Assembly: GCA_038209515.1 (NCBI GenBank)
Contig: JBBQXQ010000002.1
Coordinates: 12,364 to 76,363, forward strand
Source of the DNA: Gemmatimonadales bacterium
Lineage (GTDB): Bacteria > Gemmatimonadota > Gemmatimonadetes > Gemmatimonadales > GWC2-71-9
Direction of reading: 5' to 3'
Length of the DNA stretch: 64,000 nucleotides
Shown here: positions 22,074 through 36,656 of the stretch, one piece after another
Layout: each line of letters begins with the position of its first letter
Position numbering within the stretch: position 1 is the stretch's first letter
Notes under the pieces: generated by a model
Told to the model about the DNA's origin: nothing
Databases searched by the model: none
The model's input: only the letters and a program-made list of their open reading frames with translations
Position numbers and translations under genes: made by a program

Positions 22074-22078
22074 GGGCC

Positions 22079-22735
22079 TTAGCGCCTGCTGGCGCGGTCG
22101 ATAAAGAGGTAAATGGAGGCGGTCGAGCCTATGACCCCGAGCGCCGGCATGAAGATGTCCTTGAAGAACGACTTCTTCCGGTCAACAACGATTTGATCTC
22201 CGGAATGCACTCGGATCTTCGCGGCCGTACCCTCCGCATCCAGTAGACTGACGACCAGCTCACGCTGCCGCCCACTGCCCTCCTGCCGCAGCACCCTCAC
22301 CCGGTTCCGGTTGGCGTACTGGCTGGGACCACCGGCTTGGGCCACGGCGTCTGCGATCGAGGTCTCCGGACGTACGGCGAATACCTGAGCTCGCCCGACC
22401 TCACCCGACACGGCTACTCGCACTAGCGGCTCGACGACGAACTGAGGGTCTTGCTCGAAACGAGCCAGAAAATTCCGGACGTTGGCTTCGGCGGTACTGA
22501 AGGGCACCCCCCCAACACGCACCGCACGGTAGAGCGGGTGGGTGATGGTGCCATCCGGACCCACGATAAAGTCGCCGCTCATCTCCGGCTTGCGCCACAC
22601 CACGACGCGCACCGAGTCGCCCGGGGCCAGTGTAACCTGCTCAGTGGTCGGCGCCGGGCTCTGGGCCTGGGCTCTAACCGAAACCAACGAGGCCGCGGTG
22701 ATAACAAGAAGGGGTCGCAGAAACGAGCGTGGCAT
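22079..22735 (-). CDS. Polysaccharide export protein (Wza-like; Poly_export plus SLBB domains)
   Basis: Start re-picked at the ATG 22735..22733: MPRSFLRPLLVITAASLVSVRAQAQ (signal peptide). LAPGDSVRVVVWRKPEMSGDFIVGPDGTITHPLYRAVRVGGV is the classic Poly_export motif (PGD...G.i..P..G.v...G). Confidence 0.85.
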   Translation of the reverse strand: MPRSFLRPLLVITAASLVSVRAQAQSPAPTTEQVTLAPGDSVRVVVWRKPEMSGDFIVGPDGTITHPLYRAVRVGGVPFSTAEANVRNFLARFEQDPQFVVEPLVRVAVSGEVGRAQVFAVRPETSIADAVAQAGGPSQYANRNRVRVLRQEGSGRQRELVVSLLDAEGTAAKIRVHSGDQIVVDRKKSFFKDIFMPALGVIGSTASIYLFIDRASRR

Positions 22736-23079
22736 AAACCTCACAGGGTCATCGAAAGGTGGGCGTGGTGCGGCGCCTGTCTGAGCAATATGGGCCTGAG
22801 CGTAAAACATCCGTCCCGCGGGCGCACGAACTATGCCCCGGAAGGTCTCCGAGCCTCGGCTTGCGCATGATCACGCAAGCTAAGGCAATGTAGCAGAGAT
22901 GCTTCCGGAGTGCACCTCGGGGAAACCGTGCGGCGCACTATGAGTAAGCAACGGGTTTCGAGGCGGTGTCAGGCATCACAGCCGGGATCTGCGGGCCTAG
23001 GGATTGTTGCGCCCGACCAACAGTATGGGGAAGGTTGAAGCTATTCAGGCCACACCGGTCCTCTTAGCCCGGAATAACA

Positions 23080-23107
23080 AACGACCGGGGTGATATCCCC
23101 GGTCGTT
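23080..23107 (-). terminator. Intrinsic terminator-like hairpin downstream of the Big_2 lipoprotein gene
   Basis: AACGACCGGGG-tgatat-CCCCGGTCGTT is a perfect 11-bp stem. On the minus strand it is followed by TTGTTATTCC. It sits 53 nt after the stop at 23160. Confidence 0.6.
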
Positions 23108-23159
23108 CGTGGAGCTCGGCGTTAGGAGCGGCGCCGACCGCTATTCAGCGAATGGGCAG

Positions 23160-25088
23160 TTACGGTCGCCTGCAGGATTTGCCCGGCAATGCTGCCAACC
23201 GAGACCGGACGTCATTGAAGGCCTGTTGGTTATCGGCGTTCAAGACGAAGGCCCCATCATATCGCCACATAGTCAGCGCACAGCCAGCCGAGCCCAGGAG
23301 GATGCCCCAGTCTCGAACTTGCTGGGGGGTCATACGACAGTTGGGCGCGTACGTCCCCATGCCCCCCGTGCCGGTGCAGTCCCAAATCCCGTCACGATCT
23401 GGGACGCCGCCGTTAAGGAGGTTGACGCTGAACAAAATGGACATGCCGTCGCGTCTCGCTAGCGCGAGTCCGTCGTCCCGGTACGTGGTGACATCTCCCT
23501 TGCGCCAGGAGTACTGGTCGAGGAGGAACTCGCAGACCCTGTAGGAATTCCCGGGCTCAAAGGTGTTGTGACCATGCGCCACGCCTACCGGTAGCGCGGG
23601 GAAGATGGCCTTAACGTAGCCGCACATTGAATCCACCCGGATCTTCGTCATCGTCCCCGCCGGTCCCCAGGTATTGCCGTCACCCGCTCCGGAGACGTTG
23701 GGTTCATCCATCACGAAGTTCCCGATGATCGTCCCGTCTGCTACCGCCGAGGCAACAGCGGTTTTGATCGCCGAGGTGTTATAGGTCTGCATCTTGCCCT
23801 GCCACTTGACCATGTCGAACTGATACACGCCGTTGATGATGCTCATGTAGTTGTTGTGCGATCCGCCTGTCATCGCCAGAATCAGCTTCATGTGCTTGGT
23901 CCGAGCTGCGGCGATCAGGTCGAGAATCATGGTCGCATTGACTGGTCCGATCGTCGCCGTGAAGGCGTCGGTGTAAGGCTTGAGCGTGGTCACATCCCAG
24001 GAGTCGAATGCACCGAAAGGAATGCCTGATGGAGTTGTGGTTCCGAGGGGCACCGTAATGGTAACGCTCGAAGTGTCCGCCAACCCATCGATGCTCGCGA
24101 TCACTCGGAAAGATCCAGCCGACGAACCCGCGGTAAACAGGCCGCCCGCCGTCACCGTCCCGCCGGTCGCCGAGAATGCCACATTGACGGCGGTGCTATC
24201 CCCGGTGGTGGTGCGCCCATAGGCGGAGAACTGTTTGGTGGTGCCCGGAGCCAGGGTGACCGATGCCGGTAGCAACGTCACCTGGGCAAGCACAGGAGCC
24301 GGTGGCGTCGGCGCGGTATCTGGTGGTGGAGGCGCCGGCTCTATGGGTATGGTCGGTGGGGCGGGAGTGATCACCGAATCCGACGGGGGCGGTGGCGATG
24401 GCGGCGCGTTGATGGTGATCGTGGCCGTGTCCGCGAGGGTGCCCGCATTCTTGATCGCGATGACCCGGAAGGTCCCAACGGTGTCACCCGCCACGTAGAG
24501 CCCGCCGGCGTCAATAGTGCCGCCTTTGGCAGACCAAGTGACCCCGATGGGCACGCTGTCGCCGCCCGCGAGCCGGCCAGTGGCCGCAAAGATTTGGCTC
24601 ACGCCGGGGTTCAGCGTGGCGCTACTAGGGGTCACTACGACCGACTTTACCTTAGCCTGGCGCCGAACGACCGTGATCGTGGAGGTCTGGACCACGTCGG
24701 TGCCGTCACTCGTGCGCGCACTTCCTGCGACCTGGTACATGCCGACCGACGCTGCGGAGAATCTGCCATCTGGCAGAATCGTCCCGCCCGTCGTGCTCCA
24801 GGTTACGGGAGCTGCGACCTCATCGCCGGCCCGATTACGGCCGCGCGCACGGAATTGAAGCAATTGGTTGGTTTCGACAATGACACTGCTGGGACTGACG
24901 AGCAGTGCCACCGGAGTGCTTTCACGAGGCCGCCAGGCGTAGATCCCGGATCCAGGGACGTCAACGGGGGAGTTATCTGGCGAGGTGGCATCGCCACCGG
25001 TGCATCCAGCGAACAGCAGTAGGACCGGCAGCATAGCGAAGTGTCGTGAGATTGCCAGTCTCCGCGCAAGCTTGAAGGTGTACGTCAT
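23160..25088 (-). CDS. Lipoprotein with three Big_2 (bacterial Ig-like) domains, a Pro-rich linker, and a C-terminal ~290 aa domain of unknown function (paralog A)
   Basis: Lipobox LLLFAGCTGG. There are three repeats of the ...V.V.P.s..l..G...qf.A.g....G......v.Ws...g.i...G.... type. Linker PPSPPPPSDSVITPAPPTIPIEPAPPPPDTAPTPPAP. The C-terminal domain is shared with 27173..28384 (DGTIIGNFVMDEPN, LNLLNGG, ALTMWRYD, ALPGKSC). Confidence 0.85.
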   Translation of the reverse strand: MTYTFKLARRLAISRHFAMLPVLLLFAGCTGGDATSPDNSPVDVPGSGIYAWRPRESTPVALLVSPSSVIVETNQLLQFRARGRNRAGDEVAAPVTWSTTGGTILPDGRFSAASVGMYQVAGSARTSDGTDVVQTSTITVVRRQAKVKSVVVTPSSATLNPGVSQIFAATGRLAGGDSVPIGVTWSAKGGTIDAGGLYVAGDTVGTFRVIAIKNAGTLADTATITINAPPSPPPPSDSVITPAPPTIPIEPAPPPPDTAPTPPAPVLAQVTLLPASVTLAPGTTKQFSAYGRTTTGDSTAVNVAFSATGGTVTAGGLFTAGSSAGSFRVIASIDGLADTSSVTITVPLGTTTPSGIPFGAFDSWDVTTLKPYTDAFTATIGPVNATMILDLIAAARTKHMKLILAMTGGSHNNYMSIINGVYQFDMVKWQGKMQTYNTSAIKTAVASAVADGTIIGNFVMDEPNVSGAGDGNTWGPAGTMTKIRVDSMCGYVKAIFPALPVGVAHGHNTFEPGNSYRVCEFLLDQYSWRKGDVTTYRDDGLALARRDGMSILFSVNLLNGGVPDRDGIWDCTGTGGMGTYAPNCRMTPQQVRDWGILLGSAGCALTMWRYDGAFVLNADNQQAFNDVRSRLAALPGKSCRRP

Positions 25089-25434
25089 CGGTCTACCCTT
25101 TCATCGCTCTCCTCGGATCAGTCCCAACCGTTCCCCGAAAGCCACCACCACCCTTGGGCTACAATTACTATACGAATGTAGGGCACTGCGCTCAAGTGGA
25201 AATTTCCGAACAGCTAGTGATTAGTGAGCATTCACTAAACATCATAACTGCCATTTCTATGGTTGGTTATACGTAGCAAGAAATTTCGTTTGTAACAAGA
25301 TAGCGCATAGTATTACTACGGTCGAGCGAGGCGGTGCAGCCTGCAAACTGATGCATAACTACTGGCCACTAGACTCCGTTCCAAGAGGCCCTACATTCAG
25401 TTCACCTGCTCCGAACGGCCCCTAGCCCTAAGCC

Positions 25435-25914
25435 ATGACCGATCTCTCCCAACCCGGCAGCGCCCAACCGGCACCCCGCCGAGCAGGGTCTGGCCCTACG
25501 GTCCTAGTCGTGGAGGATGAGGACCCCCTTCGCAGCGCCATCCGGCGGTTGCTGCAAACTGAGGGCTATGCCGTTCTGGAGGCCCAGAACGGAGCCAGGG
25601 CGCTCGAGCTCCTGACCGGGAGCGAGGCAGCAGCGGGAGTCGAGCTGGTCCTGACCGACCTTCGGATGCCGGTGATGGACGGACGCCAGCTCGCGGCTGC
25701 CCTCGCGCGGGTGCGTCCCAGCCTGCCCATCGTGTTCATGTCGGGGTTCACCGCGCAGCTCATGGACATGCGACTGGTGTCGCCGCAGCTCGCCTTCCTG
25801 GCCAAGCCGTTTCGGAATGACGACCTACTGGCCACCATTCGAAACCAACTCGGTGCCGGCAGCATCGCCCGCCGCAACGTTCAAGAACCGACCCGAAAGG
25901 ATCCTGAAGTTTGA
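25435..25914 (+). CDS. Stand-alone response-regulator receiver (CheY-like) protein
   Basis: TVLVVEDEDPLR (acidic pocket), LVLTDLRMPVMDG (phospho-acceptor Asp), IVFMSGF, FLAKPF (conserved Lys). There is no output domain. Confidence 0.9.
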   Translation: MTDLSQPGSAQPAPRRAGSGPTVLVVEDEDPLRSAIRRLLQTEGYAVLEAQNGARALELLTGSEAAAGVELVLTDLRMPVMDGRQLAAALARVRPSLPIVFMSGFTAQLMDMRLVSPQLAFLAKPFRNDDLLATIRNQLGAGSIARRNVQEPTRKDPEV

Positions 25915-27095
25915 ACATCGCTTACGTCGTGACGAGGTTGGATCCCATTGGGGGTGTGCAGATCCACCTGCGGGACCTCACGGGGGCGCTGCAGGCGCAG
26001 GGCCACGCGCCGACCGTGATCACGGGTGGAACTGGGCCGTTGATCGATGAGCTTCGGGCCCAAGGCACGCCGACGGTGATCCTCCGGCATCTCTCGCTGC
26101 CGATCAACCCCCCGCGAGACGTACGCGCACTCCGAGAGATCCGTAGCCTGCTCAAGCATCTGGGTCCTGACCTAGTAGCCGTTCATTCTTCGAAGGCCGG
26201 AATCCTCGGCCGGCTCGCCGCGCGCTCGTTAGGGCTTCCTGTCCTGCTCACGGCCCATGGCTGGAACTTTACTCCCGGCATCCCGAGGCTCGAGGCAGCG
26301 ATCTACCGGCAGATCGAACGGCTCGCTGGCCCGTTCGCCAGCAAGATCATCACCGTCTCGGAGTTTGACCGACAGCTCGCGATGAAGGCCGGCCTCGCCA
26401 CCGGGGACCGCATTGTGACGGTGTACAACGGCATGCCCGACGTACCCCCACATCTCCGAGCCGATGCGGGGCGGGCGCCGGCTCGCCTTGTCATGGTAGC
26501 CCGCTTCGGACCCCAAAAGGATCACCCGACCCTTCTCCGCGCCCTTGCCGGGTTGCAGGACCACCCCTGGGAGCTCGATCTCATCGGCGATGGTCCCCTG
26601 ATGGCAGAGATGCAGTCGCTCGCCATAACGCTTGGCATTGGCGAACGCACACGCTTCCTGGGTCAACGACTGGACGTGGAGGAGATCCTGGCCCGGGCCC
26701 AGGCCAGCCTGCTAACCACCAACTGGGAGGGCTTTCCGCTGAGTATCCTCGAGGCAATGCGCGCCGGCCTGCCGGTCGTGGCGTCTTCCGTCGGCGGCAT
26801 CGGCGAAGCCATTTGCGATGAGGAGACGGGATATCTGGTGCCTCGCGGAAACGTGGATCTGCTTCGAGATCGCATCGCGCGCCTCCTCACCGACCCTGCC
26901 TTGCGGGTTCGTTTCGGCCTCAATGGTCGCCGCCGATACGAGGCGCACTTCACCCTGAACCACTTCGTGACGAATACGCTGGCCGTGTATGAGGACGTTC
27001 TCGGGAAGGGGAAGGGCGCGGATGGCCGGATGGCCCGGAAACGAATCTCCCACCTTGATGTGGTCAGATCTCCCGATTCGACGAAGCCCTGGTAG
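25911..27095 (+). CDS. Family-4-type (GT-B) glycosyltransferase
   Basis: The TTG start at 25911 overlaps the receiver gene's stop as TTGA. HSSKAGILG; EGFPLSILEAMRAGLPVVASSVGGIGEAICDEETG (E-x7-E motif region). Confidence 0.9.
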   Translation: MNIAYVVTRLDPIGGVQIHLRDLTGALQAQGHAPTVITGGTGPLIDELRAQGTPTVILRHLSLPINPPRDVRALREIRSLLKHLGPDLVAVHSSKAGILGRLAARSLGLPVLLTAHGWNFTPGIPRLEAAIYRQIERLAGPFASKIITVSEFDRQLAMKAGLATGDRIVTVYNGMPDVPPHLRADAGRAPARLVMVARFGPQKDHPTLLRALAGLQDHPWELDLIGDGPLMAEMQSLAITLGIGERTRFLGQRLDVEEILARAQASLLTTNWEGFPLSILEAMRAGLPVVASSVGGIGEAICDEETGYLVPRGNVDLLRDRIARLLTDPALRVRFGLNGRRRYEAHFTLNHFVTNTLAVYEDVLGKGKGADGRMARKRISHLDVVRSPDSTKPW

Positions 27096-27129
27096 CGCAC
27101 AGCGATCGGGTAGTTGCTGGAAAACAAGA

Positions 27130-27155
27130 AGACCCCCGGGCAGCCCCGAGGGTCT
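27130..27155. terminator. Hairpin between the convergent GT4 and paralog-B genes
   Basis: AGACCCcCGGG-cagc-CCCGaGGGTCT gives 10 paired positions with one mismatch. On the minus strand it is followed by CTTCTTGTTTTCC, so it is best placed as the terminator of 27173..28384. Confidence 0.55.
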
Positions 27156-27172
27156 CTTGCGGTCGAGATCGA

Positions 27173-28384
27173 CTACCAGATCGTTGCGGCAGCCAGGTTG
27201 GAGCACCGGGAGCTCCGCGTTTCGCACACCTTGAACACATACTTGCCAGCGTGCCCGGGGGAACTCACCGCCAGGCCGTCATTCCGGGGCGTTCTCCCGA
27301 GGACCCCGTTACGATAGAGATCGACCCGAGTGCCTGACGCCCCTGACCATTTGAGAAGGATCGACTGGACTCCATTATGAACCTGTCGCGTGGCAGTCAA
27401 GACGATTCCACTTATGCCGGGAAGAGAAATCGGAGCCGACGAACAGCTACGCCCAGGCATCGCGCCCGCCAGTTGAGACAGATGCGACATTGCGGTCTTG
27501 ATGTCGGACCGCGCCAGATAGGCTTGATCGTATTCCCAGCTGATGAAAGCGCAGGGATAGGTATTCGCCAGCAACTTGGAGCCCCATGATTCGATCTGAC
27601 TCGCGGTCAGCTTCGCCTGGTTGGGCCCACCCTGGAGAATGTTGAGTCCGATGACAAGGGCCAGTCCCTTGCTCTTGGCTAGGGACACGTTCTCCGTGAT
27701 GAACGCACCGACCTCGCCCTTCCGCTCGACGTATGCGGCCCAGGCCGCGTCGAGATAGCGGTAATCGCCGCTCCACTCCGCCAGATAGCTCGGGTAGGCC
27801 CGGACAATGGTCGGCATCTTGGGCCAAAGCTGCTTGCTGTACCCCGCCATCGCGTCCAGCATGGAACCCGAGATCGGATCGCCATTCCAGTTGGTTGGAT
27901 CGTTGGGCTCATCGACCAGGTAATGGCCGATGATGGTCCCGTCCTCGATGTAGGAAGCGAAGTTGAGGCCCTTGAACCGATCCACCGAGGCCTTCCACAG
28001 ACTAAAGCTGAAGTGGCCCGACCCATCCTTGTACCGGGACTGACCCCCAGCCAGGTTGAGCACGACCTTGCTACCCCTCGCCCTGATGGTCGCCAAGTCC
28101 GGCATGAGGTCCTCCGGGCCGATGATCCGCAGGACACCATTGTACACGCCTCCCAGGTCGCTATACGGGTGGCCCGTGGTGCCGAAGGGCATGCCGCCCC
28201 GGAAGCTGGTCGCGAGCATTGCGACGGGAGCGGCTACGGGCCCGGACATGGGCGTATTCGCGGCATCGCCCGACGGACTCGCGAGTCGGTCGGTATCACA
28301 CCCGCCGAAGACGAGTGCGAGAGCGGGAAGCAGGAGCGCTCGAAAACGGGCTGCCCGTCTGGCTAATTTGAACAAGTATGTCAT
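27173..28384 (-). CDS. Lipoprotein with the same unknown ~290 aa domain plus a C-terminal beta-sandwich-like domain (paralog B)
   Basis: Start re-picked at the ATG 28384..28382: MTYLFKLARRAARFRALLLPALALVFGGCDTD, compared with paralog A MTYTFKLARRLAISRHFAMLPVLLLFAGCTGGD. Shared motifs are DGTIIGHYLVDEPND, LNILQGG, AFISWEYD and AMPGRSC. The track ORF is over-extended to 28552. Confidence 0.8.
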   Translation of the reverse strand: MTYLFKLARRAARFRALLLPALALVFGGCDTDRLASPSGDAANTPMSGPVAAPVAMLATSFRGGMPFGTTGHPYSDLGGVYNGVLRIIGPEDLMPDLATIRARGSKVVLNLAGGQSRYKDGSGHFSFSLWKASVDRFKGLNFASYIEDGTIIGHYLVDEPNDPTNWNGDPISGSMLDAMAGYSKQLWPKMPTIVRAYPSYLAEWSGDYRYLDAAWAAYVERKGEVGAFITENVSLAKSKGLALVIGLNILQGGPNQAKLTASQIESWGSKLLANTYPCAFISWEYDQAYLARSDIKTAMSHLSQLAGAMPGRSCSSAPISLPGISGIVLTATRQVHNGVQSILLKWSGASGTRVDLYRNGVLGRTPRNDGLAVSSPGHAGKYVFKVCETRSSRCSNLAAATIW

Positions 28385-28635
28385 TCTGGGCTTCCTACAT
28401 AGCTGAGGGTGGACTACGGCTCGCGGCGGTTCGAGGGGCCGACGCCGGCGGGGCCGGAACGGCGGCTCGTCGCAATGTTGCTGACGCGAGGGATCTGGCG
28501 TTGGCCTCGACCCGGTGGAAGAGATTGCAGGTGCTGATACGAGGGGGGACATGGTCCCCCACGCTTGTCAAGTATCGGTCAGCGGTTCTGGAGCTTTAGG
28601 GGGGCCTAAGAGGGCCTAGCGGTGGGAGATACGCC

Positions 28636-29595
28636 TCAAATCTCCCAGTTCGACATCACGATCCCCTCGCCGGGGAAACGCTGAGGGAAGCCCTGGAGCA
28701 GCATCCGGAGATCAGTCCAGTGAACCCGATATCCGAGGTCGATGAGACGAAGGTACTGCTGGGTGAACTCGGTCTGGCAGCGGAGGGCGATCCGGCTCAC
28801 CCGTTCATTCACCGCGGAAAGCTGGAGCGCTTGCACCAGACGCTCGAAGGTGGCCGGGTTCGACGCCACCAATTTGAGGACCCGCAGCTCATCCTTGGGC
28901 CGTCCGGCGGCTAGTGGAGTCGAATGCCACAGCGCGAAACCGGAAAGGGTCCGGCCGTCCCGACACAGCGTGGTGTCTCCGATACCAAGCTCGCGGGTGA
29001 GCGCGAGCTCACGGGTGAAGTCCACACCCGGAAGGATGCGGCCGGTCAGCGCTCGGCACTCTTCCAGCCGCTGCTCAAAAGCCGTTCCGGACGACGAGAG
29101 CGTCTCGGCTGTTCCCGCCACGCGCCGGGGCACGTCATGCACCAGAGTGACGGTGAGATGGCCCGGCACCAATCCGATCCGGCTGTAAAACCCGATGTTG
29201 TCCACGGTCCTGGGCATCGTTTCCAAGCCAATGGTCGTGGCTCCCTGCCCCCGCAGCCACTCGATCCCGGTGCGCACCATGGCCGACCCGATACCTTCAC
29301 CTTGCCGGTCGGGGCGTACAGCGAGTGGCCCCATCCATCCTTCCGTGCCCGAGCGGTGAACCATGTTGAACCCGACCATCTGGCCATCGACGTCGCGCCA
29401 GACCATCGATCCGTCTCCGGCGTCCTCCAGCGCGTAGCGCCACACCAGGGCGTTGAGCTGGGGAACCCGCACGCCCACCAGCCCGTCCCGACTGTAGCGG
29501 TCGGTGAACGCGTCGGCGAAGACTCGATTCAGCGACTCGATGTCCCGCAGGGTCGGCCGGTCGGGGCCGCGGACGCTTCGATCAGGCCGCCACAT
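28636..29595 (-). CDS. GNAT-family N-acetyltransferase, two-domain
   Basis: LAVRPDRQGEGIGSAMVRTGIEWLRGQGATTIGLET is the acetyl-CoA-binding Q/RxxGxG/A motif. The start at 29595 overlaps the rad50/sbcC stop at 29582 by 14 nt. Confidence 0.85.
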   Translation of the reverse strand: MWRPDRSVRGPDRPTLRDIESLNRVFADAFTDRYSRDGLVGVRVPQLNALVWRYALEDAGDGSMVWRDVDGQMVGFNMVHRSGTEGWMGPLAVRPDRQGEGIGSAMVRTGIEWLRGQGATTIGLETMPRTVDNIGFYSRIGLVPGHLTVTLVHDVPRRVAGTAETLSSSGTAFEQRLEECRALTGRILPGVDFTRELALTRELGIGDTTLCRDGRTLSGFALWHSTPLAAGRPKDELRVLKLVASNPATFERLVQALQLSAVNERVSRIALRCQTEFTQQYLRLIDLGYRVHWTDLRMLLQGFPQRFPGEGIVMSNWEI

Positions 29596-31999
29596 CGCGA
29601 TCTCCCTGATCGTCTCGTGCGGTGGCCACCCCAGTGGCTAGATCGAAGCCGACTCGCACGACGTGGTCGACGCCGTCATTTACTGATTCAATGTGGGTGA
29701 CGAGGATGACCTGCGAGAAGCGGTCGGCCAGGCTGCGGAGCAGGTCTATGACGGCGCTGCGGCGGTCCTCATCGAGCGAGCCAAAGATCTCGTCGAGGAT
29801 GAGCAAGGACAGCGGCTGCCCCGCCAGCTCGGCGATCATCTGACTGATCGCCAACCGGAAAGCCAGGTTAGCTACGTCCTCCTCGCCGCCCGAGATGACC
29901 GTCTGCGGGTCACCATCATCCAGTACTGAAATTGAATAGTCCTCGTCGAGCTCGAGCTCCACATAGCGCCCACGGGTGAGGTCGCTAAGGAAACCGGATG
30001 CGAGGTCGGAGAGGTCGGGACGCAGGCTCGAATTGAGATCGTCGCGCAGATCGGTAAGCGCGCGGTCCAGCTCTTGGTGCAGCGCAAGCTCGCCGGCGGT
30101 CTCGGTGGCCGACCGCTCCCGTTGGTCCCGCTCAGCCTGGCGCCGAACCACTGCCTCCACTGCCTCGCCGGCGGCGCTCCGTTCGGCCTTCGCCCGCACC
30201 AGAGCCAGCTCAGCCTCACGGCGCGCCCGCTCCGCCGCCTGCTCGGCATCCCGAAAGTCCTTGAACGTCGACTCGCTGTATTCGAGGCCCGCCAAGCGGG
30301 TCCTCAGGTCGGCGATGGCCCCGGCGATCTCGGCGGCGACCGCGCGCGCGGTTTCGAGCTCGACGGCGACCGCCTCGCTTCGTTCCGCCACGACCCGAAA
30401 GCGCTCTGCCTGCAAGGAGAGCGGCTCGAGAGCCCGAGTCTCGCGAACGACCGCCTCATGCCGGGCCTGGTCGTAGGAGTCAGCCAGCCCCGCAAGAGCC
30501 CCTTCCACCTCGCCGATGCGGAGCAGCAGCCGCTTTTCCTCCTCCCGCAGGGGACCGGCCTCATGGGCCTGGGCATGGAGTCGACCCTGCTGCGCGGTGG
30601 CTTCGGAGAGCTCGCGTTCCAGCGCGACCTTCTGCGCATCGATGTCGGCCAGCGTCGCCGGCTCCTGCTGCAGCTGGTCGATCCGCTGCTTGTAATAATT
30701 GCCGTTGGAGCGCACCTCCTCGACCTGGCGGTCAAGCAGCTCGAGCACCTTGGCGTACTCAACGCCGAGAGGGCGGGCACAGGTGGGGCACACTCCATCG
30801 GCGCCCGCCTGCACGATGCGCTGGCGCTGCTCCTTCAGCTCCTGGTAGTGATCGAGGAGACCTTGCCGCTTGGTCTTGGCATCCTGGGCATCGCGGACCC
30901 AGACGGTTCGCTGCTCTTCCGACTCGAGACTGGCGGCCGTAAGCGAAGCGCGGGAAGCGTTGACCCGCTCGAGCGCTTGGTCGAGAAGCTGCTTGGAGGG
31001 TACCCGGGAGATCCGTTCCTGGATGGAGGCGAGATGCGCCTTCACTTCGTCGAGCTGGGCCTGGTAGCTCTTGCGGGCGGCAAACGCCTCGGCCTGGCGC
31101 TCCAGCGCCTGCGCCTCTTCCCGAAGCGCGGGCAGCGGCGTGAGACGCCGGCGGACCTCATCCAACTTCTGCCGCGCCGTAGCCGCCTCTGCCGCCTCAT
31201 GCTCGAGCCGTGCCACGCGCTCGGATGTCGCTACGGCCTTCTGGTCAGCGAGCTTGATCTCCGCCTCGAGGGCCATCGCCGCTTCGCGCAGATGCTGCAG
31301 CTTCTCCCACTGGGGGCGGATGGTAGCCAGGCGCTGCTCCGCGGCTTCGCTGGCGGTGGCGGCAGCCGTCTCTGCCCTTCGGGCGGCCTCCAGGCGGTCG
31401 TCGGCCTGCTTCCTAGCGGCCTCCAACTCCGCACCGTCAGGCAGCCCCGCCCGCAGTCCTTCGAGCCGGGCGCGCAGTGTCGATCGCCTTTCCTTCAATC
31501 GCTCCTGCCCGATGCGGAGCCGTTCGTAGCCGAGGACCTGGGAGAGAAACTGGGCCCGCTCGGGCGCGCTCATGGCCGCCATCACGGCGAGCTGCTTCTG
31601 CCCGGTGAAGTAGGTGTTGAAGAACTGCTCGCGGGTCATGCCCAGCAGCCGGGTTACCCGCTCGGTGACAGCGCCGATGCTGTTGGCGATGGCCGCTGGA
31701 TCTCCATCCTGGTAGAGCTCGGCACTGTTGAGGGAACGCACGATGCGATACTGGTGGGCGCCGAGGGTGAAGTCGACCTCCACCGCCACTCTGGCCTTGG
31801 GCGGCGCACCGCGACGTCGAAGGGTCTCCCGACTTCCGCGGGCCGCAGGCATGCCGTACATAGCCCAGGCGATGGCCTCGAGGAGCGTGGTCTTGCCTGC
31901 ACCGTTGGGCCCGATGATCCCTGTGACACCAGGGCCGAACTCGATCTCGGTATCCTCGTGCTGACGGAAATTCACCAGACGTAGCCGGTTTATTTGCAT
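29582..31999 (-). CDS. sbcC: Rad50/SbcC-family SMC-like ATPase
   Basis: MQINRLRLVNFRQHEDTEIEFGPGVTGIIGPNGAGKTTLLEAI (Walker A). Long coiled coil with a central zinc hook GVCPTCARPL. Signature SGGEEDVANLAFRLAIS. Walker B LSLLILDEIFGSLD. Confidence 0.9.
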   Translation of the reverse strand: MQINRLRLVNFRQHEDTEIEFGPGVTGIIGPNGAGKTTLLEAIAWAMYGMPAARGSRETLRRRGAPPKARVAVEVDFTLGAHQYRIVRSLNSAELYQDGDPAAIANSIGAVTERVTRLLGMTREQFFNTYFTGQKQLAVMAAMSAPERAQFLSQVLGYERLRIGQERLKERRSTLRARLEGLRAGLPDGAELEAARKQADDRLEAARRAETAAATASEAAEQRLATIRPQWEKLQHLREAAMALEAEIKLADQKAVATSERVARLEHEAAEAATARQKLDEVRRRLTPLPALREEAQALERQAEAFAARKSYQAQLDEVKAHLASIQERISRVPSKQLLDQALERVNASRASLTAASLESEEQRTVWVRDAQDAKTKRQGLLDHYQELKEQRQRIVQAGADGVCPTCARPLGVEYAKVLELLDRQVEEVRSNGNYYKQRIDQLQQEPATLADIDAQKVALERELSEATAQQGRLHAQAHEAGPLREEEKRLLLRIGEVEGALAGLADSYDQARHEAVVRETRALEPLSLQAERFRVVAERSEAVAVELETARAVAAEIAGAIADLRTRLAGLEYSESTFKDFRDAEQAAERARREAELALVRAKAERSAAGEAVEAVVRRQAERDQRERSATETAGELALHQELDRALTDLRDDLNSSLRPDLSDLASGFLSDLTRGRYVELELDEDYSISVLDDGDPQTVISGGEEDVANLAFRLAISQMIAELAGQPLSLLILDEIFGSLDEDRRSAVIDLLRSLADRFSQVILVTHIESVNDGVDHVVRVGFDLATGVATARDDQGDRDVAA

Positions 32000-33177
32000 C
32001 AGCCCCCCATCAGATCGCGCTCGACGCTATCCATCAGCTCACGCCCCAGCCGCACGAACGCCGCCCGATCCAGTTCGGCCGGAAGGGGCCGGCCTTCGAG
32101 ATAGCTAGTTACCAGCTCGGGCAGGGTCAGCCGTCGCCCTGGAGAACCTACGCCGATAATCCGATGAGTCTCTGGACGGCGAAGATCGAGGTGGAAATGC
32201 AGGGCGTCAGTCTTGAAGCTTCGAACCGCGGCGTGGTTCAGCTCGCGCGCCACATACCGTGGAATATCGAACACCCGCAGCCGTACGATCTGCCCGGAAA
32301 TGCCATCAGGAATGGAGGTGACCCGCTCGGCAATCAAAGCGTCCACCGCCTCCGCGGACTTGCCCTCCGCCCTGACCGGCTCCAGATCGAGCACCGCGCG
32401 AGCCGCTGGTACCGGATGGCGCTGGGCCTGCTTGGTCTTCAGATCGACGAGGAGCCAACCCTTTCCGTGGGAGCCGTGGTCGGCCTCGTCGGACGCCTCG
32501 CCCCAGACGTTGGGTCCGATGAAGTCGAGGGAGCCGGCATACCAGGCATTCTTGGCCACCTGGTGTTGGGTGTGGTAATGGCCCAGGGCGACGTAGGTCC
32601 AATCCTCCAAGTGCAATTCCCGGCGACTAATGACCGCGCCACCGTACTCGGTGGCGACGTGGCCGAGCGGGTACTCTCCCGCGACCTCGGAATGTGCCAC
32701 CAGCACCTGATGTTTTTGAGGCCCTTCAGGCTGTAGAGCGGGAGGATCAGCGGCCACGAGTGCCTGTTGAGGCACGGCAAAGATGCTGAGGTCGAGCTCA
32801 GGGTAGACCAGCCGGCGGGGCTCGTCCGCAGCCACGTCGACACCCAGCTCCTCGAATAACCGGAGAATCGAACCGGTCTCTATCGTGCGAGGGGTGTCGT
32901 GGTTCCCGGCGATGAGGACGACGGGGGTGTCTGGGAGGGCTTCGCGGAGTCGCTGGAGCTGCCTGAAGGCAAAGACGATCGCGGAATTGCTGGGCCGGAC
33001 GGAATGAAAGAGATCGCCCGCGAAGACGACCACTTCGGGTCGGGCGGCGATGACGCCGTCAATAGCGGTGCGAAAGGCCTGGGCAATGTCGGCTTCCCGC
33101 TGATTGATGCCTGCCGAGGTTTGCCGATGGTACTGCCGGATGCCCAGGTGGGGGTCCGCGATGTGGGCAAGTTTCAC
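31999..33177 (-). CDS. sbcD: Mre11/SbcD-family nuclease
   Basis: Calcineurin-like phosphoesterase motifs HIADPHLG, AGDLFHS, IAGNHD, VAHSEV and GHYH. 1-nt overlap with the downstream rad50/sbcC start. Confidence 0.9.
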   Translation of the reverse strand: MKLAHIADPHLGIRQYHRQTSAGINQREADIAQAFRTAIDGVIAARPEVVVFAGDLFHSVRPSNSAIVFAFRQLQRLREALPDTPVVLIAGNHDTPRTIETGSILRLFEELGVDVAADEPRRLVYPELDLSIFAVPQQALVAADPPALQPEGPQKHQVLVAHSEVAGEYPLGHVATEYGGAVISRRELHLEDWTYVALGHYHTQHQVAKNAWYAGSLDFIGPNVWGEASDEADHGSHGKGWLLVDLKTKQAQRHPVPAARAVLDLEPVRAEGKSAEAVDALIAERVTSIPDGISGQIVRLRVFDIPRYVARELNHAAVRSFKTDALHFHLDLRRPETHRIIGVGSPGRRLTLPELVTSYLEGRPLPAELDRAAFVRLGRELMDSVERDLMGG

Positions 33178-33236
33178 GGGTGGAGAATGGGTCCAAAAGC
33201 GGTAAAGAGCAAGCAGTTAACGCACGGCCGGCGGGG

Positions 33237-35180
33237 CTACCCACCGTATGAATCGTCGGCGCGCTTGAGAGCGGGAATCCCCCGTCGGGCTGTCACGACC
33301 TCTGCGTTGACCCGACGGCCGAGACATGCGGTAAAGAAGGCGTATGCGTCTGCCGGACGCTCGCGGCGGGTAGCGGACAGGGCCCGGCGCACATCCTCCT
33401 CCCGTCGTCCGTCGATCAGCGAGCGAACGGCCTCCGATGAGACACGTCGGTCGAGCCTTCGCATCTGACGCACCACCGCGTCCTCGAAGGAGAGCTCTCC
33501 GGCGGGAGGAAAACGTTCGATGCCCTCCCGGCTGTTGAGCACCGCGGGCCGGGGGAACTTGACGAAGATCGGCTGGGTGAAGTGGGGGTGGCGGAGCATC
33601 AGCTCACCCTTGGGCAATGTGGCCAGCTTGATCTTGGTCGCCGGCGATTGCGTGCCATACCCGGGCGTGGCGAGCTCGTCGGAATCCATCCGGCCGTAGA
33701 TCGCGGTGCCGGCATTCCCCACTACCCTGCGCTGGACCTGGGAGCGGAATTGCTGGGCTGAGAAGAGCACGAGGCCCAGGTAACGTCCACGCTCGGAGAG
33801 ATCGATGAGCATCTTTCTCACGTACGTGTCGGGCCCGTCGGCGGGCGCATACTTGTTCAGCTCATCCACGAACACGACGACATGGTCCACGCCGAGGTCT
33901 CGCCGCTCGAGATGTTCCCTGAGCTTCGAAACCACCCGCGCAAAGACCAGATCCTGAGCGAGCGGATCGAGACCCGCCACGTCGATGACATGCACGCTGC
34001 GATCCTCGAAGCGCCCCCAAGGCAGATCACTGGCTATGCCGTCATCGGTTACGAGGCCCTTGGAGCGAGTGCTGATATTGCTGAGCCGGTTCCGCACTTT
34101 CCGGATCGTGGCCACATGGTGCGTCTTCCACACTTCCCCACCCTTCCCCAGCAGCTCCATGAAATCAAAGATGGCGCGGAAGAACTCCTCCAGGTCGGCG
34201 AAGCTCTGTACCAGGAAGGGCTTTCGTCGCAGCATCTCGTCCTGATACTCGCGGCCCACGACTCGCTCCGCCAGGAAATCAATGAAGGCATCGGCCTTGG
34301 CATCGATGTCGTCCCGGTTCAGCACGACCTCCGCGTAGTCCAGAACTTCACGCAAGCCCCACACGAGCGGCTCGGTGTTTCCCGAGAGCGCCTCATGGGT
34401 CCGTAGCGTATTCAGGTTCACTCCATCGGGTTTCAGCGGGGCATAGTAGCGAACATTGGCGAAGGGCTCCGGTTGAAGACCCAGGCGGGCGTACTGCCGC
34501 AGATCCTCCTCCCCCAGCGTCCCGGGCTGGTCGAGGAAGCAGAGATCAGGCCCCTTTACGTTGAAGCAGAGGGCCGCGACGGTTCCCTTGTGCGAGGGGA
34601 AGGTCTGAAAGATGCTGCCCAGAAGGAACTCGACCGCGCTGGTCTTGGTAGCGAGACCGGACACCCCGGTAATGTTGAGGTGGGCCGCCTCGGGACCCAG
34701 CAAGAAGTCGCAGTCCAGATACACCGGGCAGTCGAAGCCCCCGGCGGCATAGAGTCCGACCGGGATGCCGGTGGGACGGTCTCCGGTTGTAAACCCATCC
34801 ATGCGGAGCGCCTGCACGACATCGCTGTCCGATGCAAGCCAGACCGCTCCGAGCGGGACGGGCTGGAGCGGTTCCTCCGGGATCTGCCGGAGCACGGCGG
34901 CGGTGAAGAGCCGGATCTCGGCCCGTGCCGTCGGCTCGGCGCCGGCAGCAACCGGATCACCGTCGGCGCCGATCACCGCGTGCATGGGCGTCATTAAATC
35001 GGAATACGCGAACCCGTCCGTCACCACCCCGAAGACGACCCGTTCGTTTTCCTGCACGCGAACGATCGCCCCGATGCCGATGGGCGTTTCGCGGGCGGTC
35101 CAGAAGTGGAACTGGTGTGGAGTGGAGGGCTTCAGCTCGGTGGCCACGACGCGGCCGACCGGGAGAGTTTCTGGGGGCAT
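33237..35180 (-). CDS. herA: HerA-like (FtsK/HerA superfamily, DUF87-type) ATPase
   Basis: N-terminal barrel-like segment VGRVVATELKPSTPHQFHFWTARETPIGIGAIVRV...VVFGVVTD. P-loop region NITGVSGLATKTSAVEF. Walker B HVVVFVDELNKYAP. Sits between the NurA-like and Mre11-like genes. Confidence 0.8.
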   Translation of the reverse strand: MPPETLPVGRVVATELKPSTPHQFHFWTARETPIGIGAIVRVQENERVVFGVVTDGFAYSDLMTPMHAVIGADGDPVAAGAEPTARAEIRLFTAAVLRQIPEEPLQPVPLGAVWLASDSDVVQALRMDGFTTGDRPTGIPVGLYAAGGFDCPVYLDCDFLLGPEAAHLNITGVSGLATKTSAVEFLLGSIFQTFPSHKGTVAALCFNVKGPDLCFLDQPGTLGEEDLRQYARLGLQPEPFANVRYYAPLKPDGVNLNTLRTHEALSGNTEPLVWGLREVLDYAEVVLNRDDIDAKADAFIDFLAERVVGREYQDEMLRRKPFLVQSFADLEEFFRAIFDFMELLGKGGEVWKTHHVATIRKVRNRLSNISTRSKGLVTDDGIASDLPWGRFEDRSVHVIDVAGLDPLAQDLVFARVVSKLREHLERRDLGVDHVVVFVDELNKYAPADGPDTYVRKMLIDLSERGRYLGLVLFSAQQFRSQVQRRVVGNAGTAIYGRMDSDELATPGYGTQSPATKIKLATLPKGELMLRHPHFTQPIFVKFPRPAVLNSREGIERFPPAGELSFEDAVVRQMRRLDRRVSSEAVRSLIDGRREEDVRRALSATRRERPADAYAFFTACLGRRVNAEVVTARRGIPALKRADDSYGG

Positions 35181-35223
35181 GGATGGAACGTAGTGGGAGA
35201 AGCGTGAGCGGGAAAGGAAAAAC

Positions 35224-36147
35224 TTACGCTTTGGCTTTGAGATACTGCTCTACACTGTGGATCCCGTAGAGCAGCCGGTCCCATCGGTGATCGGGTGCGC
35301 TGACCGGCGACCGCTCGGCCAGGATCCAGCGGGAAATCGCATCCACGTTCTTGATAGCCTCGTTGGCCGGCGCGACCTCGACCCGGACCAACCCGTGAAG
35401 CAGGTCCTTTCCTTCCCAGGGCCAGAGACGAAGCCCCCACGCGCGAACCGGCGCCAGACTCCTCGTCGCGGGTGTATACACCGAGGATCGGTGGGCAGCT
35501 GGGAGCCGCAGGTAGCGTTCGAGATCGTCGCCTTCGAACGGCAGGATCGAGTGGCTCTTCGAGATACCCACTAGCCGCGGATCCTCTGCCCAGCGTGGGC
35601 TCTCCGCCAGCGAGCCGTCTACGATGAGCCAGCCGTCGGAACGGGCCCGGTAGGCATCGCCGACCGCGAGCTCGAGTGCTCCTCGTTCGCGGTCGAGGGC
35701 TCGCGCCGCGTTAAGCAGATCACGCACGGGATGCGGGGCGTCGTCATCCGGCAGCGGGACCGGCTCACGATCGCGGAGCGCCTCCCCGGCGGCCGCGAGC
35801 GCCGAGGGGCGGGCCAGAACTAGGAGACGGCTCTTCTGCGTGGCGGTGTGCAAGCGGCGATCGCGCCGCTCGCGAACGGCGGCGGCGATCTCGGCAGCGA
35901 GGATTGGTGAGGACCCATGGTAGCCCACCACCTCGGACCGCTGAATTCCATCCAGGTACGCGAGCGGCCCAGGCCATGGCTCGGCACTGCCCACCGGAAT
36001 GGCCTCGAGCCGGGTACCCTCCAGCAGGCGAGCCGGCTTAATGCTGGCCTCTTCAAGCCTGCCTCCACTCGCTTCAGGAACAAAGGAGGCTGGTGTCAGC
36101 CCTTTCCGGGCCAAAGCCCGCCGAAGCGGTTCGAGGTTCCGGCTCAT
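35224..36147 (-). CDS. nurA: NurA-like nuclease
   Basis: 307 aa. LAYLDGIQRSEVVG and DGWLIVDGSLAESP resemble the catalytic Asp motifs of the NurA domain. Its position directly upstream of herA supports the call. Confidence 0.65.
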   Translation of the reverse strand: MSRNLEPLRRALARKGLTPASFVPEASGGRLEEASIKPARLLEGTRLEAIPVGSAEPWPGPLAYLDGIQRSEVVGYHGSSPILAAEIAAAVRERRDRRLHTATQKSRLLVLARPSALAAAGEALRDREPVPLPDDDAPHPVRDLLNAARALDRERGALELAVGDAYRARSDGWLIVDGSLAESPRWAEDPRLVGISKSHSILPFEGDDLERYLRLPAAHRSSVYTPATRSLAPVRAWGLRLWPWEGKDLLHGLVRVEVAPANEAIKNVDAISRWILAERSPVSAPDHRWDRLLYGIHSVEQYLKAKA

Positions 36148-36227
36148 GTTAATCGGCTAGGTTTAGGGGGCTCGCGGGACACGCATACCGGCCGTATTAC
36201 AGGTCACAACCTAGCGGCGCAGGATCG

Positions 36228-36656
36228 GTGATGCACGCAAAGAAAGCAGGCAAGAAAAGGTCGGCCGACTCGACCAGTGACGGAGCTCAGGAGCGACTCA
36301 GCGAGGTCCTGTCCACCTTCGCGACGCTGCGAGAAGACGGACGGGCGCTGATCGAGCGCATTCACGGCTCACTGCTGGAGATGCGCGACCTGCGGCAGCA
36401 GATACGGGCGCAGCGAACGGAACGAACGCCGGGTGGTGGTTTCGCACCGGCCCGGACCGCGTACCTGCAAATGGAGTTCGGCCTCACGGTCCGGGAGACC
36501 CAAGTGGCCCTGCTGCTGGGGCAAGGGCGCTCCAATGTCGCCATCGCGAAGACACTCGGCATCAGCACCCACACCGCCAGGCACCACACCCAGCGTGTGC
36601 TTGGCAAGATGAAGGTGCACTCTTGGGCGGAGGCAGGCGCGAAGCTCCGTGGTTGA
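36228..36656 (+). CDS. LuxR/GerE-type HTH transcriptional regulator
   Basis: C-terminal LTVRETQVALLLGQGRSNVAIAKTLGISTHTARHHTQRVLGKMKV is a canonical GerE HTH. The N-terminal ~70 aa has no recognisable domain. Confidence 0.85.
   Translation: MMHAKKAGKKRSADSTSDGAQERLSEVLSTFATLREDGRALIERIHGSLLEMRDLRQQIRAQRTERTPGGGFAPARTAYLQMEFGLTVRETQVALLLGQGRSNVAIAKTLGISTHTARHHTQRVLGKMKVHSWAEAGAKLRG

Follow-up and report, generated by a model that had tools for sequence, protein, structure and literature searches.

The window analysed in this study is a 64,000-nucleotide stretch of DNA from a Gemmatimonadales bacterium (contig JBBQXQ010000002.1). At positions 28636-36147, its minus strand carries five co-directional genes in the order nurA-herA-mre11-rad50-GNAT, coding for a putative NurA nuclease, a HerA-type ATPase, homologues of Mre11 (SbcD) and Rad50 (SbcC), and an acetyltransferase of the GNAT family. 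The layout given in a first-pass annotation of the same DNA, with gaps of 43 nucleotides (nurA/herA) and 59 nucleotides (herA/mre11) and overlaps of 1 nucleotide (mre11/rad50) and 14 nucleotides (rad50/GNAT), was reproduced exactly. The GC content is about 64% across the window, and the cluster shows no compositional break. The closest homologues were all found in metagenome-assembled genomes (MAGs) of Gemmatimonadales. The genes, together with two features located within rad50, are as follows.

35224-36147, minus strand: nurA, 307 amino acids; predicted nuclease with an RNase H fold, bacterial NurA clade
33237-35180, minus strand: herA, 647 amino acids; FtsK/HerA-superfamily ATPase, orthologue of Deinococcus radiodurans HerA
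31999-33177, minus strand: mre11/sbcD phosphoesterase gene, 392 amino acids, GTG start; 1-nucleotide overlap of its stop with the start of rad50
29582-31999, minus strand: rad50/sbcC, SMC-like ATPase gene, 805 amino acids; central zinc hook
30779-30790, minus strand: CPTC codons of the Rad50 zinc hook (residues 404-407), halfway along the predicted coiled coil
28636-29595, minus strand: gene for a two-domain GNAT acetyltransferase, 319 amino acids; 14-nucleotide overlap of its start with the stop of rad50
29601-29606, minus strand: Shine-Dalgarno sequence GGGAGA of the GNAT gene, within the last rad50 codons and 5 nucleotides upstream of the ATG at 29595

The motifs previously listed for NurA, HerA, Mre11 and Rad50 were all found, and the assignments of these four proteins and of the GNAT proved correct as judged by profile, fold, phmmer and Pfam comparisons and by the motifs themselves. 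In NurA, the motifs YLDG and IVDGSL start at residues 64 and 175. An exhaustive HMMER search for the NurA family yielded 513 cluster representatives, and a profile built from 55 diverse members matched the Thermotoga maritima protein TM1739 (1zup, E=1.9e-8) and D. radiodurans NurA (DrNurA; 7f6d_H, E=6.5e-8) in the PDB. The Pfam NurA model (PF09376) was matched by 11 of the 55 members (best E=1.5e-5), and one source already annotates a sequence of the family, taken from a MAG with the label Fimbriimonas ginsengisoli, as "NurA domain-containing protein". An AlphaFold2 model generated from the diverse alignment reached a predicted local distance difference test score (pLDDT) of 93.5 and a predicted template modelling score (pTM) of 0.91. 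It replaced an earlier model based solely on close homologues, which was discarded (pLDDT 66.6, low template modelling scores, TM-scores). Foldseek retrieved with this model 1zup (TM-score 0.61, E=2e-11), 7f6d_G (0.55) and 2ygk, the NurA of Sulfolobus solfataricus (0.46), all with a probability of 1.00. E159 and D177 do not vary among the 55 sequences, and D66 is retained in at least 90% of them. In the alignment with TM1739 and DrNurA, the motifs around D66 and D177 coincide with FVDG and DGP, and the conserved acidic residues, which form a D...E...D pattern, are presumably metal-binding. The concern that the NurA-like protein could belong to an unrelated family is not borne out by the profile matches, the PF09376 hits and the NurA fold. 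The window protein is predicted on these grounds to be a genuine NurA of the bacterial (Deinococcus/Thermotoga) clade.

HerA was matched by phmmer to D. radiodurans HerA (DrHerA; 7f6d_B) with E=4.1e-42 in two stretches, residues 8-279 and 357-555. The deviant Walker A motif GVSGLATKTS at residue 172 aligns with GISGVATKTS of DrHerA (pattern GxSGxATKTS), and the Walker B motif VFVDELNKYAP at residue 436 aligns with VVLDELNKYAP. The N-terminus aligns to that of DrHerA as well; it gave a HAS-barrel match in Pfam that stayed under the cut-off (E=0.026). No archaeal HerA chain was matched by phmmer at E<=10. At the level of sequence, the window protein can be assigned unambiguously as an orthologue of D. 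radiodurans HerA and as a member of the bacterial clade. At E<=1e-20, the bacterial HerA family has more than 6,000 homologues; it is highly conserved, with 52-56% identity when Gemmatimonadota are compared with Armatimonadota and Melainabacteria. Members of this family have no precomputed Pfam domain and are mostly annotated as "ATP-binding protein" or "hypothetical".

Mre11 contains the motifs DPHLG (residue 8), GDLF (54), GNHD (91) and GHYH (199), and matched the Pfam Metallophos model with E=6.7e-11 (43 bits, cut-off 21.5). Among the NCBIfam models, Mre11_Sulfo scored best (90 bits, cut-off 500) and sbcd TIGR00619 reached 73.4 bits (cut-off 77.65), all scores remaining under the cut-offs. 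Compared with PDB chains, Mre11 reached about 58-61 bits with the Methanocaldococcus jannaschii and Pyrococcus furiosus proteins, 37 bits with that of T. maritima and 29 bits with the bacterial SbcD chain 7dog. Rad50 carries a Walker A motif GPNGAGKT at residue 30, the CPTC hook at 404, and the motifs SGGE and LLILDE, and exceeded the cut-offs of the Pfam models AAA_23, SMC_N and SbcC_Walker_B. It scored 210 bits with the archaeal NCBIfam model PRK03918 (cut-off 700) and 103 bits with sbcc TIGR00618 (cut-off 478); the PDB scores were 108-111 bits for M. jannaschii and P. furiosus, 88 for T. maritima and 29 for E. coli SbcC. Judged by score, both proteins appear nearer to their archaeal and Thermotoga counterparts than to SbcCD of E. 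coli.

The GNAT matched Pfam Acetyltransf_1 over residues 54-141 (E=7.4e-13, 49 bits, cut-off 20.7). The acetyl-CoA motif QGEGIG lies in this N-terminal domain at residues 98-103, and Q98, G101 and G103 are invariant. The C-terminal 165 residues gave solely sub-threshold matches to PF17668 (Acetyltransf_17), the second GNAT domain of Eis-like tandem GNATs; this weak likeness spanned E=0.005-0.17 (0.17 for the window protein, 0.0054 for the orthologue on the distant Gemmatimonadota contig L084). No significant match to Eis, MshD, RimI or Naa30 spans the whole protein, and no match to an SCP2 domain was found in it. An internal duplication was considered and rejected: in an hhalign comparison of the N- and C-terminal halves the beta-hairpin regions align, but not significantly (P=0.07). 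Across the family, the C-terminal SNWEI and a long TIGLETMPRT...NIGFY block are invariant. The invariant C-terminus recalls Eis and NMT, in which a C-terminal carboxylate reaches the active site; this serves as a lead only. Among the candidates scored, 6,241 matches to the GNAT family were obtained at E<=1e-5, and the named members are from Gemmatimonadota. The N-terminus MWRPDRS is conserved in the orthologues, and the overlapping GNAT start is therefore considered real.

For the analysis of gene order, one genome per species was scanned for NurA relatives with a five-sequence NurA alignment as query. This gave 201 relatives, and synteny was derived from the best 80 loci, all of which are from Gemmatimonadota except one from a MAG labelled Bacillota. 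When the five proteins were compared with these 80 loci by tblastn, the same gene order was observed everywhere, with full-length orthologues in dozens of genomes. The junctions were conserved as follows.

nurA-herA: adjacent in 57 of 74 informative loci
herA-mre11: adjacent in 35 of 57 informative loci
mre11-rad50: adjacent in 54 of 54 informative loci, median gap -1
rad50-GNAT: adjacent in 45 of 45 informative loci, median gap -14

Each locus holds a single cluster, and identity declines in step for all five proteins. The median identities to the window proteins in the 39 complete loci are given below; NurA is the fastest-evolving partner.

HerA: 85.7%
GNAT: 75.5%
Mre11: 68.2%
Rad50: 66.5%
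NurA: 65.7%

All five genes and the overlap are kept even on contig L084, although the NurA encoded there is 34% identical. In bacterium HR33 (GCA_002923375.1, locus L091, 5387-9975), mre11-rad50-GNAT occurs with the usual overlap, and neither herA nor a recognisable nurA was found in the 5 kb upstream and the 9 kb downstream of the trio. The HR33 flanks are syntenic with those of L084, and a 288-amino-acid protein with no Pfam match and no tblastn likeness to NurA takes the place of nurA-herA. The occurrence of the trio with no nurA-herA nearby suggests that the GNAT travels with Mre11-Rad50. With its Shine-Dalgarno sequence, its conserved N-terminus and the unbroken junction in Gemmatimonadota, the tie between GNAT and rad50 postulated in the first-pass annotation holds. 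The GNAT is predicted to be translationally coupled to rad50, and mre11-rad50-GNAT to be a module specific to Gemmatimonadota. In one MAG (MFD04935.bin.2.79, L014 16595-17563), two stretches of the GNAT frame deviate from the family, and herA, mre11 and rad50 gave fragmented tblastn matches; long-read frameshift errors or a decaying cluster are the options.

Outside Gemmatimonadota, nurA-herA-mre11-rad50 was found with no GNAT in an Armatimonadota MAG (L088), on a Melainabacteria contig (L089) that ends after mre11, and on the contigs L090 (2.5 Mb) and L086. The NurA encoded on L090 is 65% identical to that of the Melainabacteria contig. Compared with the window, these clusters show 31-38% identity for Mre11 and Rad50 and 52-56% for HerA. 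In MAGs labelled Fimbriimonas, nurA-herA stands alone on the contigs. The genes after rad50 in L086 (355 amino acids), L090 (408) and L088 (237) were considered as counterparts and rejected, since they show no likeness to one another or to the GNAT. An Armatimonadota nurA-herA locus in a MAG labelled Fimbriimonas ginsengisoli (L081 12963-13382) encodes a 139-amino-acid single-domain GNAT in a gene that converges on herA, with an overlap at the herA end. This GNAT has no blastp likeness to the Gemmatimonadota GNAT, and its position may be a coincidence.

A comparable arrangement has been mentioned in passing, but never characterized, for Oceanithermus profundus of the phylum Deinococcota, in which SbcD and SbcC homologues lie downstream of nurA-hepA; this was read as an archaeal-like architecture for double-strand break repair (Blesa et al., 2017, PMC5448004). 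According to this description, the four gene families are shared with the window, sbcD and sbcC lie downstream of the herA homologue, and no GNAT was reported. For the NurA-HerA system of D. radiodurans (7F6D; PMC9960219), HerA is a clear orthologue and NurA is related by profile and fold, and nurA likewise precedes herA in the same direction. The window differs from it in that mre11-rad50 follows directly, in the attached GNAT and in its very divergent NurA. In Deinococcus and Thermus, nurA-herA lies apart from sbcCD, as the first-pass annotation also stated. T. maritima TM1739 (1ZUP), a NurA-like nuclease that is both the best structural and the best profile match of the window NurA, is a structural-genomics protein for which the sources consulted describe no partner context. 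The operon of Sulfolobus and Pyrococcus, representing the thermophilic archaea from which this machinery for trimming DNA ends is best known, comprises the same four protein families with a presumably identical division of labour, and all four are clustered co-directionally in the window as well; moreover, the window Mre11 and Rad50 score best against archaeal structures and models. The archaeal order is reportedly herA-mre11-rad50-nurA, as described in work attributed to Constantinesco in 2004, with nurA last in Sulfolobus. The window differs in its bacterial-clade HerA and NurA, in having nurA first, in the extra GNAT and in its host, a mesophilic-type soil bacterium.

We consider it likely that the locus encodes a DNA end-resection cluster of bacterial-clade NurA, HerA, Mre11 and Rad50 in an old bacterial arrangement, accompanied in Gemmatimonadota by a rad50-coupled GNAT. 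In the proposed mechanism, Mre11-Rad50, consisting of a Mn-dependent phosphoesterase nuclease and a zinc-hook SMC-like ATPase, would recognise and tether DNA ends and make the first cuts, opening or nicking the ends. The HerA ring ATPase would then thread the duplex into a dimer of the NurA nuclease. With a predicted 5'-3' exo/endonuclease activity that HerA would stimulate, NurA would degrade the DNA to leave a 3' tail, onto which RecA could be loaded. What the comparisons establish directly are the gene content, the orthology, the intact motifs and the pattern of conservation; these steps are modelled on the characterized archaeal and D. radiodurans NurA-HerA systems (PMC9960219, PMC3326311) and are transferred to the window by orthology. 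As the cluster occurs in several phyla, NurA-HerA together with Mre11-Rad50 may be a main resection route there. The GNAT may acetylate, in an acetyl-CoA-dependent manner, a protein that is either a component of this machine or DNA-bound, such as SSB, HU or RecA, and thereby tune end processing. In favour of a role of this kind, its N-terminal GNAT domain aligns best with Naa30 and RimI, which acetylate protein N-termini.

Several results weigh against this reading. As a single sequence, the window NurA gave no Pfam NurA match even at E<=10, no NCBIfam match and no PDB match; its identification consequently needed the profile and fold methods. Pfam misses the family, which is labelled "hypothetical protein" nearly everywhere. 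HerA, as a single sequence, misses its Pfam model and has no NCBIfam match. Mre11 and Rad50 pass no curated NCBIfam model for Mre11/SbcD or Rad50/SbcC, and these proteins would therefore represent a separate subfamily and not equivalogs of the characterized ones. For the GNAT, a profile built from 22 orthologues points to two protein N-terminal acetyltransferases as the nearest solved relatives, Naa30 (E=1.7e-6) and RimI (E=4e-6); both matches are weak (E of about 1e-6), and the sequence of a GNAT does not reveal its substrate. Its C-terminal domain yielded no significant match. Upstream of nurA, neither a damage-response operator nor a palindrome was recognised by eye, merely a possible -10-like element. 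Finally, unrelated genes are inserted between nurA and herA in 23% and between herA and mre11 in 39% of the informative loci, so co-transcription of the four genes is not obligatory. A single operon does not hold throughout, since many relatives are interrupted; the cluster is better described as a neighbourhood of three modules (nurA, herA and mre11-rad50-GNAT) than as a fixed operon. The inserted genes were examined as possible extra components and rejected as unrelated. Their products are an FAD oxidoreductase resembling glycerol-3-phosphate dehydrogenase, a ClC chloride channel (encoded on the opposite strand), a histidine kinase/response regulator with PAS domain and a Mo-oxidoreductase of the molybdopterin oxidoreductase type (L024 10855-12600, L005 12933-14774, L039 13072-15081 and L035 8763-9851).

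In the first-pass annotation, the locus had been described as an "archaeal-style" operon that could have been acquired laterally or assembled convergently. Recent transfer from archaea would be in line with the higher scores of Mre11 and Rad50 against archaeal models and structures than against SbcCD of E. coli, Bacillus or Staphylococcus, but Mre11-Rad50 of the bacterium T. maritima also scores well. Moreover, both NurA and HerA fall into the bacterial clade, the gene order is unlike the archaeal one, the GC content is uniform with the surroundings, and orthologous clusters are found in at least three bacterial phyla with identities of 31-65%, which are typical of old divergence. We therefore regard such a transfer as very improbable; judged by these comparisons, the four-gene neighbourhood is old and widespread in bacteria. 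The presumed rarity in bacteria could not be upheld either. Far from being a stray archaeal feature in a single bacterium, the cluster is shared by the little-studied phyla Gemmatimonadota, Armatimonadota and Melainabacteria and by Oceanithermus, for which it had already been published. A role in defence against phages or plasmids had also been left open. The HerA-type ATPase, the nucleases and the SMC-like ATPase would in that case degrade invading DNA, with the GNAT as effector or modifier. HerA-family ATPases do occur in the Sir2-HerA and DUF4297-HerA defence systems, and PADLOC matched Rad50 to LmuB (1e-36), mad3 and PbeC and HerA to mad8 (7e-8, 30 bits). The Rad50 matches, however, reflect generic similarity among SMC/ABC ATPases, and NurA and the GNAT match nothing in PADLOC. 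HerA resembles the repair protein DrHerA (E=4e-42) far more closely than chain 8xau (E=0.076), which we take to be a defence-system HerA, and no gene for Sir2, DUF4297, an LmuA-type protein or another effector is present. The cluster is phylum-wide, diverges steadily and is flanked by ordinary metabolic or transport genes; it is neither patchy nor island-like. A defence function is accordingly improbable and gains no support from the bacterial-clade NurA and HerA or the housekeeping flanks.

The part played by the GNAT has to be weighed separately. It could be a passenger, that is, an acetyltransferase for small molecules (antibiotics, polyamines, sugars or amino acids) that has historically shared the rad50 transcript and has no role in repair. 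GNATs are promiscuous hitch-hikers in operons, the single-sequence matches include puromycin, nourseothricin and streptothricin acetyltransferases (E=1e-5 to 1e-3), one orthologue is annotated in one source as a dTDP-fucosamine acetyltransferase, and the clusters outside Gemmatimonadota lack the GNAT. Yet the rad50-GNAT junction is unbroken and the 14-nucleotide overlap conserved, while the nurA/herA and herA/mre11 junctions are often broken; the association holds in L084 and in HR33, and the GNAT is more conserved than Rad50. We consider a mere passenger rather unlikely. Gene coupling suggests that Mre11-Rad50 is the target or the partner of the GNAT, for which protein acetylation is the most plausible activity. 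A more specific proposal, put forward tentatively and with more doubt than confidence, is that it constitutes a dedicated third subunit or regulator of Mre11-Rad50 that acetylates the resection machinery or a DNA-bound partner. If so, the acetyl-CoA status of the cell would be linked to the processing of double-strand breaks, and the GNAT would take an accessory role like that of Nbs1/CtIP-type proteins, which act as accessory factors in eukaryotes. We know of no bacterial counterpart of this role, and accessory regulators of bacterial SbcCD or Mre11-Rad50 are, to our knowledge, essentially undescribed; likewise, we are aware of no coupling to rad50 for Eis, MshD, RimI or Naa30. In the literature, no paper was found that links a GNAT to SbcCD or Mre11-Rad50, or NurA/HerA to Gemmatimonadota. 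Whereas the bacterial four-gene arrangement was already known, the conserved mre11-rad50-GNAT module appears new and undescribed so far. Its unbroken junction in the 45 loci surveyed provides strong comparative evidence that protein acetylation, or another acyl transfer, is wired into Mre11-Rad50 in this phylum.

The regions on both sides of the cluster were analysed as well. No RNA genes were found in the window by Rfam and tRNA scans, and no terminator-like hairpin was detected in any intergenic gap of the cluster. The sole strong intrinsic terminator of the region is located at 27129-27156, 3' of the gene downstream of the GNAT. Upstream of nurA, the following features were identified.

36148-36227, no strand: divergent intergenic region of 80 nucleotides between nurA and the LuxR/GerE-type gene; presumably carries the cluster promoter
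36228-36656, plus strand: LuxR/GerE-family helix-turn-helix protein, 142 amino acids; Pfam GerE E=1.2e-11; uncertain member of the cluster

A TGTAAT or TTGTAAC-like element was seen by eye, with no statistics applied, at a similar position in several orthologous nurA upstream regions. An orthologue of the LuxR/GerE-type gene is divergent from nurA and less than 500 nucleotides away in 27 of the 76 loci with enough upstream sequence, and its product could be a local regulator of the cluster.

Downstream of the GNAT, a 459-amino-acid open reading frame (27173-28552, minus strand) was considered as a sixth gene and rejected, as it is likelier to encode a lipoprotein that starts at M57 and has its own leader, and its position is not conserved. 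It has no Pfam match, and its sequence read from M57 (LLPALALVFGGC) resembles the signal peptide of a lipoprotein. In other genomes, paralogues of weak similarity (25-36% identity) recur close to the cluster, on one strand or the other. The cluster is adjoined by a set of genes for polysaccharide biosynthesis and export (window 19605-27095), with the following members.

19605-22073: Wzz/GNVR tyrosine-kinase-type chain-length protein
22079-22810: Poly_export/SLBB protein
within 19605-27095: Big_2-domain protein
25435-25914: lone response regulator
25911-27095: GT4 glycosyltransferase

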